DNA of 64,000 bases from contig CAYWJO010000004.1 of the NCBI GenBank assembly GCA_964458565.1, positions 64,001 to 128,000 on the forward strand, written 5' to 3'. Both the position numbers and the translations under genes were made by a program. Position 1 is the stretch's first letter. Each line of letters opens with the position of its first letter. Under the pieces are notes generated by a model, which made no database searches, was not told the origin of the DNA, and worked only from the letters and a program-made list of their open reading frames with translations. Source of the DNA: an uncultured archaeon. GTDB lineage: Archaea; Asgardarchaeota; Thorarchaeia; Thorarchaeales; Thorarchaeaceae. Positions 26,295 to 27,375 of the stretch are shown piece by piece.

Positions 26295-27375
26295 ATGGGT
26301 CTACGAGAGTACGTTATCAGACGTGGTATCTACATGTTCTTACTTGTAGTTGCTGTAGTCTGTTTCAACTTTTTCCTATTCAGACTTCCGACGCTTGTAC
26401 TTGGTATCAGCCCTGTTGACCTTATGATCAGTGAGGAACTTCGGCGAAACCTCACCCAAGATGCATTGCAGCAGATCTATGTCCAATTCGGTCTTGTTCC
26501 AGACCCAGACATTTTCGACTGGATCTACATGTTCTGGAGATATCTTGTCAACATGTTCACAGGTAACTTTGGACGCTCATTTGTATCCAAGACCCCAGTA
26601 ATGGCTGAGATTGCATCAAGATTACCCAACACACTCTTGTTGATGGGTACATCTTCAATTGTTTCAATCATTATCGGTATCTGGACTGGTGTCAAAGTTG
26701 CTGCTGATCCCGGTTCACGTAAAGACGTTGGTGCAGTTACTGTCGCGTTGTTCATCTATGCACTCCCAATCTTTTGGTTCGGAATGCTATTACTGATGGT
26801 TTTCGCATTCTATATGCGAACGGCGACGGGTGGCTTATTCTACTTCCCGCTTGGTGGAACAATCGATTATGCCCTTTGGGGAATCGCAAAGGAGAGCCCC
26901 TATGGGGCTTTGATGTTGGCCGGTAATATATTGCACCACCTGTTCCTTCCAATGATTACCCTTGGTGTCGGTGGCTATGGTGGTTACTTCTTGTACATGA
27001 GGAACAATCTAAATCCGGATTACATTGCGAATTCGGAAGAGAATAGACGTCATGACAGAAGACTACATACTGACCGCACGAGCAAAGGGATTGGACGAGA
27101 ACCAGGTACTGTACAAGCACGGTCTGAAAAATGCGCTACTACCAATGGTAACAATAATAGCCATGAATTTTGGCTTCCTAATCAATGGAGCGACGCTTAC
27201 AGAAACGGTGTTCAACTGGTACGGGATGGGTCGGTATATATTCACCAGCCTGTTCCAGTTAGACTATCCTGTGGTCCAAGCGATATTTATGGTAATCGCG
27301 ATAACAGCGATACTTGCGAATTTCGTGGCAGACCTTCTGTATGGAGTCCTTGACCCGCGAATCAAGTACGGGTAG
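26295..27375 (+). CDS. oppB: Oligopeptide ABC transporter permease OppB, interrupted by a 31-nt insert (candidate intron 27013-27043); 349 aa if spliced
   Basis: 5' part (GNFGRSF, RLPNTLLL, LPIFWFG, HLFLP) and 3' part (EDYILTARAKG, HGLKNALLP, ETVFNWYGMG, LDPRI) are in different frames. Removing 31 nt gives YMRNNLIDVMTEDYILTARAKG. Confidence 0.85.
27013..27043 (+). other. Candidate archaeal BHB/BHL-type mRNA intron
   Basis: 8-bp internal stem TCCGGATT/AATTCGGA, 3-nt bulge AAA, central helix ATCT/AGAG, flanking exon-exon stem. Cleavage after the second bulge nucleotide on each strand removes exactly 31 nt and restores the frame. Confidence 0.6.

Follow-up and report, generated by a model that had tools for sequence, protein, structure and literature searches.

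Evidence that a 31-nucleotide intron is removed from the messenger RNA of an oligopeptide permease gene, oppB, in an Asgard archaeon

The stretch of DNA analyzed here, a window of 64,000 nucleotides (nt) from an uncultured archaeon of the Thorarchaeaceae (positions 64,001 to 128,000 of contig CAYWJO010000004.1, assembly GCA_964458565.1), carries on its + strand the gene oppB (26295-27375), which encodes an OppB/DppB-type ATP-binding cassette (ABC) permease and is interrupted by a 31-nt insert. We conclude, with a probability of roughly 87%, that this insert is a genuine intron that is removed from the messenger RNA (mRNA). The open reading frame (ORF) starting at 26295 reads as an OppB/DppB-type protein up to ...GGYFLYMRNNL, beyond which it continues in a shifted frame as far as 27353, and the conserved continuation, IDVMTEDYILTARAKG..., is found in a different frame, ending at 27375. 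Exon 1 (26295-27012, + strand) holds codons 1-239 and the first base of codon 240 (Ile), the intron occupies 27013-27043 (+ strand; 27011-27041 and 27012-27042 are equally valid coordinates because of an AA repeat at its flanks), and exon 2 (27044-27375, + strand) extends from the remainder of codon 240 to the stop codon at 27373-27375. Excision of the 31 nt gives an ORF of 349 amino acids (aa) that reads YMRNNLIDVMTEDYILTARAKG, and 349 aa is the modal length among orthologs. The uninterrupted OppB anticipated by a first-pass annotation of the sequence was thereby confirmed, including at the level of protein family: across the joined exons the two halves match Pfam BPD_transp_1 collinearly, at 2-74 and 76-183 of the 184 model positions. 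The exon 1 product is 68-85% identical to same-family orthologs over 239 aa.

The intron lies five codons ahead of the EAA coupling loop (EDYILTARAKG), and exon 2 codes for this loop region and the last membrane segments. An unspliced mRNA has an ORF of 352 aa with a frameshifted tail, which lacks the coupling loop and the last membrane segments; in ABC permeases, the region absent from unspliced OppB is the part that contacts the ATPase together with those last segments. Since the +1-shifted frame of exon 2 (27044-27353) stays open for 101 codons, gene callers report an 'intact' 352-aa protein, and the entry in the public protein collection, a cluster of one, is this unspliced ORF. A meaning for the open shifted tail was considered and rejected: the same frame is also open in intron-less relatives (127 codons in locus L117, 90 in L005 and L024), and the 101-codon tail is therefore compositional and without meaning.

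Several salt-marsh metatranscriptome runs include sequence from the oppB region. Three RNA runs of this kind and one DNA run were compared with the window over 26200-27500, as assembled contigs. A 703-nt contig from one RNA run (X5) aligned with 0 mismatches to 26486-27010 and then to 27042-27219 (525 + 178 nt), and a 151-nt contig from another (X8) aligned to 26925-27010 and then to 27042-27106 (86 + 65 nt). Both skip 31 nt, with 2 bases ambiguous, such that the joint can be written as 27012 followed by 27044; the nucleotide sequence across it is ...AACAATCTAATAGACGTC... and the peptide of the spliced product is ...YMRNNLIDVMTEDY... The junction that had been predicted from the genomic sequence, AACAATCTA directly followed by ATAGACGTC, is thus the junction present in the RNA contigs of two metatranscriptome runs. 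The contig from the DNA run (X4, 1173 nt) is continuous through the insert without a difference. No insert-bearing contig was present among the three RNA runs, and the DNA run held the insert-bearing form only. Three independent DNA assemblies are 100% identical across the insert; contigs from Logan (assembled per run) and from JGI match the window at 100% over 5.4 and 4.3 kb, respectively, insert included. The insert is thus real DNA. Splicing of the oppB mRNA is therefore supported by a segment that is absent from mature RNA in two runs and present in DNA in a sequencing run and three assemblies. Logan contigs are built from 31-mers, and the 31-mers that span the junction must therefore be in the reads. 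Moreover, over intergenic flanks where the DNA run has coverage, the depth was zero in all three RNA runs, and this speaks against carry-over of DNA. Programmed ribosomal frameshifting and translational bypass were rejected, as the 31 nt are missing from the RNA contigs themselves. RNA contig ends near the gene borders were discarded as possible transcript ends, as the DNA contig breaks at the same 5' place. The idea that the intron acts as a regulatory switch for peptide uptake is unsupported: the spliced form alone was assembled from RNA, with no tie to any condition.

Comparison with other genomes places the insert in a narrow lineage. Every ortholog examined reads GGYFLYMRNNLIDVMTEDYILTARAKG uninterrupted; the insert is missing in 19 orthologs from other genera of the same family and in ~60 further loci from species-representative genomes, i.e. 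in ~80 Thorarchaeota orthologs in total, including relatives that are 92-97% identical in protein. The ortholog alignment that had been recommended at first pass therefore found the insert in the window only, and as the orthologous loci are from Candidatus Thorarchaeota / Promethearchaeota, the earlier assignment to an Asgard-type host stands. The closest intron-less relatives form a cluster of eight proteins, 92-97% aa identical to the spliced product, with a DNA sequence (locus L117) that is 87% identical. A degenerate pattern that accepts any 14-44-nt insert between YMRNN and DVMT matches the window, and its control form with a 6-nt gap matches 71 loci; a scan of metagenome contigs, from which the genome records of the window itself were excluded, gave no 14-44-nt insert at this site. 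No second copy of the intron hairpin was found in its own genome (best partial match 15 nt, E = 0.06), and no match to the intron within 3 mismatches was found in 60 genomes of the family. The missing insert in orthologs and the uniqueness of the hairpin point to a recent, lineage-specific gain without an identifiable donor. When the spliced coding sequence was compared with that of the nearest intron-less relative, exon 2 (109 codons) had 34 nt changes and 1 aa change (ratio of nonsynonymous to synonymous substitution rates, dN/dS, 0.013), and exon 1 had 97 nt changes and 13 aa changes (dN/dS 0.053), a pattern indicating that, in the spliced frame, purifying selection on exon 2 is strong.

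All of the structural elements that the first-pass annotation had described within 26987-27061 are present, and they resemble a bulge-helix-bulge (BHB), the motif cut by the transfer RNA (tRNA)-splicing endonuclease, EndA. The intron hairpin (helix h', 27014-27037, + strand) appears in both the minimum free energy (MFE) and the centroid structures with a closing-pair probability of 0.93; its stem of 8 bp, including one G.U, pairs TCCGGATT (27014-21) with AATTCGGA (27030-37) and closes a loop of 8 nt, ACATTGCG. The hairpin is preceded by the 5' bulge AAA (27011-27013, + strand), within which the predicted cut, between 27012 and 27013, is compatible with the RNA junction. In the register of the first-pass annotation, the central helix is formed by ATCT in exon 1 (27007-27010, + strand) and AGAG in the intron (27038-27041, + strand), with three Watson-Crick pairs and an A.G. 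The 3' splice-site segment (27042-27049, + strand) begins with AAT, in which the cut is predicted to fall between 27043 and 27044, and continues with AGACG. Facing 27001-27006, this segment forms the 3' half of an internal loop of 6x8, which makes the structure a bulge-helix-loop (BHL) without a closed second bulge. Beyond this loop, the MFE structure contains a distal exon-exon helix between 26987-27000 and 27050-27061 (both + strand), although its complementarity is mostly due to conserved codons (FLYM / VMTED) and is shared by orthologs without the intron. Cuts two nt into each bulge would produce the junction seen in the RNA contigs. The motif thus corresponds to an EndA-type intron in the relaxed form (HBh'/bulge-helix-loop) and not to the strict hBHBh' form.

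For the 89-nt region the folding energy is -27.3 kcal/mol (z = -4.97), a value reached by 0 of 200 dinucleotide shuffles. Under a rule of at least 3/4 central pairs, a 3-nt bulge and a stem of at least 8 bp, 31-nt segments with the same geometry occur at 6.7e-5 of positions in the host genome. ViennaRNA slightly favors a shifted register of the central helix (UCU 27008-10 / AGA 27040-42; -21.0 kcal/mol) over the register of the first-pass annotation (-20.0 kcal/mol), with pair probabilities of ~0.8 and 0.12, respectively. With the shifted register, 32 nt would be excised and the frame broken; with the canonical one (27008-10/27038-40 and the mismatched A27007.G27041, stacked on the intron helix), the predicted excision is 31 nt, as observed in RNA.

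The host genome (3.7 Mb in 93 contigs) encodes two EndA paralogs, in the regions of C1:27246-27500 and C5:17476-17736, and a single RtcB; the EndA scores on PF01974 are 113 and 73 bits, and RtcB reaches 589 bits. The EndA paralog of 187 aa is closest to the splicing-endonuclease chains 3p1z_B, 3ajv_B, 2cv8_A and 2zyz_B, which we take to be the enzymes of Aeropyrum pernix, Sulfolobus tokodaii and Pyrobaculum aerophilum (crenarchaeal EndA subunits), and the paralog of 212 aa is more divergent. The ends that EndA generates when it cuts are a 2',3'-cyclic phosphate and a 5'-OH, and in many cases the released intron becomes circular. Asgard EndA has been described as an (alpha-beta)2 enzyme with an L1 loop that permits relaxed motifs, which are cut only by (alpha-beta)2 and epsilon2 enzymes (PMC5829648). 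The host thus encodes both a presumed relaxed-motif endonuclease, with the L1 loop as reported for Asgard EndA (PMC5829648), and RtcB. In the sequence of events we propose, the pre-mRNA would fold into the relaxed bulge-helix-bulge (HBh'/bulge-helix-loop) built from the final six exon 1 bases together with the hairpin and the AGAG strand of the intron; a tRNA-splicing endonuclease, probably an (alpha-beta)2 heterotetramer, would cut between 27012 and 27013 and between 27043 and 27044; and the exons would be joined by RtcB into an mRNA that would encode the normal 349-aa OppB permease. We infer this EndA/RtcB route, the best-supported mechanism, from the shape of the motif, from the two EndA paralogs and the RtcB that the host encodes, and from the recurrence of this geometry in other split genes of the same genome.

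Three such split genes were examined in the host genome. The EF-1alpha gene (contig C45) is in pieces, with two inserts of BHB geometry at 20259-20289 (31 nt, frameshifting) and 20426-20455 (30 nt, in-frame TGA), equivalent to positions 1470-1500 and 1637-1666 of locus L116; their removal restores the conserved ...LGRPSWAWAFALDRLKEERERG... and ...GHKDFIKNMITGASQAD... (Further downstream in this gene there is a run of N with duplicated flanks, i.e. a scaffold gap.) The actin gene (locus L110) carries a 30-nt insert with an in-frame TAA (C1:109606-109635, - strand), which has a canonical BHB with a CCAG/CTGG central helix and a 9-bp intron stem, and removal of which restores the conserved protein sequence. 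In ahcY, encoding S-adenosylhomocysteine hydrolase (loci L107-L109), a 31-nt frameshifting insert (C1:187509-187539, + strand) has BHB geometry with a 6-bp outer helix, and its removal gives ...AAEGHPSEVMDLSFTGQ / ...GHPSEVMDLSFTGQ. All five inserts, that of oppB included, are built alike: a helix strand of 4 nt and a bulge of 3 nt precede a hairpin of 23-24 nt, and a second helix strand of 4 nt leads to the 3' site, which begins mostly with AA. Aragorn placed introns, many of them ~30 nt long, in 22 of the 32 tRNA genes detected in the host, and the number 32 suggests that further tRNA genes are hidden by non-canonical introns; some of the Aragorn intron calls, of hundreds to thousands of nt, are clearly spurious. 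The EF-1alpha, actin and ahcY genes of the host, and many of its tRNA genes, thus share with oppB one class of ~30-nt mini-introns.

A motif-free screen gave a view of such inserts that is independent of their structure. ORFs from 1.2 Mb of a sister genus (G019) were translated and compared without gaps with the host, yielding 764 ortholog pairs at >=50% identity, in which we looked for inserts of 8-150 nt that break an ORF. The ORF-breaking inserts in the host were those in oppB (31 nt) and EF-1alpha (intron 1, 31 nt; intron 2, 30 nt, stop) and one artefact, a 19-nt frame-breaking 'insert' at C2:190316 that was rejected because it sits on a run of N, i.e. a scaffold gap; the remaining differences were in-frame indels without stops. 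All clean short ORF-breaking inserts found in the host are thus of BHB type, and random frameshifts are therefore not a property of the assembly. The reverse screen found two stop- or frame-disrupting inserts in the sister genus. One of 69 nt had weak matches only (51% identity over 35-37 aa), and the other, which is clean, is a 65-nt BHB-type insert in the gene for RNA polymerase A' (L119:6910-6974, contig C1 of G019) that is not in the host genome; it separates Rpb1 domain 1 positions 2-237 from 234-312, and has a 4/4 central helix (CACA/TGTG), a 7-bp outer helix and a fold z-score of -3.2.

The hairpin loop GATTTCC is common to the EF-1alpha inserts, to tRNA-Met (C5) and tRNA-Ala(cgc) (C69), and to the RNA polymerase A' insert, and variants of it are found in actin (GATTCCC) and tRNA-Thr (C7; GCTTTCC); the oppB intron does not have the motif. 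This shared loop could reflect common descent or a bound factor. Two genome-wide approaches were abandoned. GATT[TC]CC in a BHB-like context proved too permissive to be informative (480 of 1439 occurrences), and a census that combined the motif with the joining of ORFs produced 143,603 BHB-like candidates, with a filter that also missed verified cases. In this census 509 candidates joined two coding-like ORFs, against 496-537 for decoys shifted by 1-2 nt, i.e. no enrichment, because gene boundaries dominate.

Several points weigh against a genuine oppB intron cut by EndA. With 3 bp and an A.G, the central helix has little strength, the thermodynamic model prefers the other register by 1 kcal/mol, and the 3' site has no adjacent closing helix; only one intron-bearing sequence is available, which leaves no covariation test. 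EndA as the enzyme that cuts the oppB mRNA is inferred and not shown; of the endonuclease-mediated pre-mRNA splicing proposed at first pass, it is the removal of 31 nt that is seen in RNA. The RNA evidence in turn consists of low-depth contigs (6.2 and 3.0) and not of raw reads, so that rare variants are invisible, and contig-level data give no ratio of spliced to unspliced RNA. Finally, a single DNA run was compared, and the RNA samples might thus, formally, contain a DNA allele without the intron.

Such an allele, carried by some cells, or DNA contaminating the RNA libraries, which can contain DNA, would yield the joined contigs through a DNA polymorphism and not through splicing. We consider this very unlikely: the X5 contig runs for 703 nt without a mismatch, whereas the nearest intron-less sequences are 87% identical in DNA; no 349-aa protein with 100% identity is on record, as the ORF of the window is alone in its cluster and the closest protein in the other cluster reaches 97%; and the insert in all DNA assemblies and the zero depth over flanking intergenic DNA in all three RNA runs speak against it as well.

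A real intron might also be removed by another endonuclease and ligase, or by self-cleavage. The enzymes are, after all, assigned indirectly, and the motif is relaxed with a marginal central helix. However, a group I or group II self-splicing intron, with a ribozyme core of hundreds of nt, would need far more than 31 nt, and there was no Rfam match at E <= 1 within 26800-27250. The cut sites lie where the BHB rule places them, the same architecture recurs in host tRNA introns and in the four other gene inserts, and (alpha-beta)2 EndA enzymes do cut such relaxed motifs (PMC5829648), which together make removal by a different route highly improbable.

The 2-nt microhomology (AA) at both borders and the stable 8-bp hairpin between them are features across which a reverse transcriptase could jump, leaving a false deletion in the library. 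We regard this as extremely unlikely, because the joined form is the sole form assembled, in two separate runs, whereas artefacts are normally a minority beside their template. The deletion is, moreover, not the 24-nt hairpin but the exact 31 nt that are missing in orthologs and whose loss restores the frame, and exon 2 is conserved in the spliced frame. That oppB is simply a dead gene, non-functional after a recent pseudogenising insertion, is scarcely credible: the insert is indeed lineage-specific and frame-disrupting, and there is another oppC at the locus as well as distant oppB paralogs (27-31% identity) in the genome, but the insert is missing from RNA, oppB has no second lesion of any kind, dN/dS is 0.013 downstream of the insert, and the clean ORF-breaking inserts of the screen are all BHB-like, 30-31 nt long, and in two cases located in the essential EF-1alpha gene.

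The surroundings of oppB are those of an oligopeptide transporter. The gene is flanked by two oppC-type permease genes (24321-25961 and 27653-29332, both + strand; Pfam OppC_N and BPD_transp_1), in which the two domains are separated by a long extracytoplasmic insert of low conservation, and is followed by an oppA-like family-5 solute-binding protein gene (29280-31439, + strand; Pfam SBP_bac_5), the true start of which is probably downstream of 29280. Two oligopeptide-type ABC ATPase genes (oppD/oppF-like; 21597-23810, - strand; Pfam ABC_tran and oligo_HPY in both ORFs) are divergent and upstream of the oppB/oppC genes. One relative (locus L007; C1:124110-127826 of G009, reverse strand) has, ~95 nt downstream of the oppB stop codon, another copy of the 3' part of oppB that is truncated at its 5' end; this copy starts exactly at ...L-VDVMTEDYILTARAKG, the codon of the intron site in the window, and its C-terminal end is decayed. 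Full tandem oppB duplicates are seen in several other relatives.

In archaea, it is a textbook rarity for a protein-coding gene to contain an intron that the tRNA-splicing machinery removes. The oppB intron is of significance in that its host is an Asgard archaeon, of the group closest to eukaryotes, that the gene is an ordinary metabolic one, that the splice is seen in environmental RNA, and that splicing sets the reading frame. As relatives 87% identical in DNA are without it, the intron is young, and the gain of an mRNA intron in archaea becomes directly testable. Gene callers report mini-intron genes as frameshifted or wrong proteins, and Asgard proteomes and pseudogene counts are therefore biased. 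More tentatively, and with somewhat less than even odds in our estimation, the oppB intron may be a snapshot of ongoing gain, in which active ~30-nt BHB mini-introns move between tRNA and protein genes in Thorarchaeota or the wider Asgard group, the expression of essential genes (EF-1alpha, actin, RNA polymerase A') relies on tRNA-splicing enzymes, and the GATTTCC loop marks a shared origin or a bound factor. If such an active population of mini-introns exists, splicing efficiency could become a layer of gene control.

Among known systems, one parallel is the splicing of HAC1 and XBP1 mRNAs, where the endonuclease Ire1 cuts at stem-loops and a tRNA ligase (RtcB in animals) joins the exons, the XBP1 intron being 26 nt long. 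As in oppB, the intron is very short, its removal changes the downstream reading frame, and a tRNA ligase, presumably also in oppB, makes the joint; the role of RtcB in XBP-1 splicing is mentioned in the literature (PMC8718801). The endonuclease and its recognition motif are, however, different, and HAC1/XBP1 splicing is a regulated stress switch, whereas oppB gives no evidence of regulation. Another is the BHB intron in the 5' untranslated region (UTR) of Haloferax volcanii HVO_1309, which was found by RNA sequencing and confirmed in vitro, and which, like oppB (presumably), makes an mRNA a substrate of the archaeal splicing endonuclease; it measures 46 nt and lies in the untranslated leader, whereas the oppB intron interrupts coding sequence (PMC7714728).

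In architecture (4-bp central helix, 3-nt bulge, hairpin and relaxed second site), the oppB intron matches the non-canonical (HBh'/BHL) tRNA introns that are cut by (alpha-beta)2 or epsilon2 EndA (PMC5829648; PMC3241643), and the introns of intron-rich Asgard tRNA genes (PMC11291895; bioRxiv 10.64898/2026.10.13.758758); the presumed enzymes are shared too, and the ~30-nt size class is that of tRNA introns in the host genome. The papers on these Asgard tRNA introns make no mention of mRNA introns (PMC11291895; bioRxiv 10.64898/2026.10.13.758758). Unlike tRNA introns, the oppB intron interrupts an mRNA, so that the reading frame depends on splicing, and there is no tRNA body to aid recognition.

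The nearest counterpart is the cbf5 intron of Crenarchaeota (Watanabe 2002; Yoshinari 2006; Yokobori 2009, PMC2738675), which in the 2020 study of Haloferax EndA substrates was the sole BHB intron until then reported in archaeal mRNA, and to which that study added the 5' UTR case (PMC7714728). We found no further published BHB intron in coding sequence beyond cbf5 in the searchable literature. Both the cbf5 and the oppB intron are of BHB type, lie within a coding sequence and are removed from mRNA; the cbf5 intron is tied to hetero-oligomeric EndA and has undergone lineage-specific gain and loss (PMC2738675), and the oppB intron likewise is lineage-specific. The two genes differ in encoding an ABC permease and a pseudouridine synthase, respectively, the oppB host belongs to the Asgard phylum, and the insertion site is another one; the oppB intron is not at a position homologous to that of cbf5, and the resemblance is one of mechanism only. 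Furthermore, the oppB intron is limited to one species-level lineage, whereas that of cbf5 is ancestral to two orders, and the oppB host, unlike in the cbf5 case, carries more mRNA mini-introns (twice in EF-1alpha, and in actin and ahcY). The evidence for oppB is metatranscriptomic and not from reverse transcription PCR or in vitro cleavage. The oppB case contributes direct RNA evidence together with a very recent gain.

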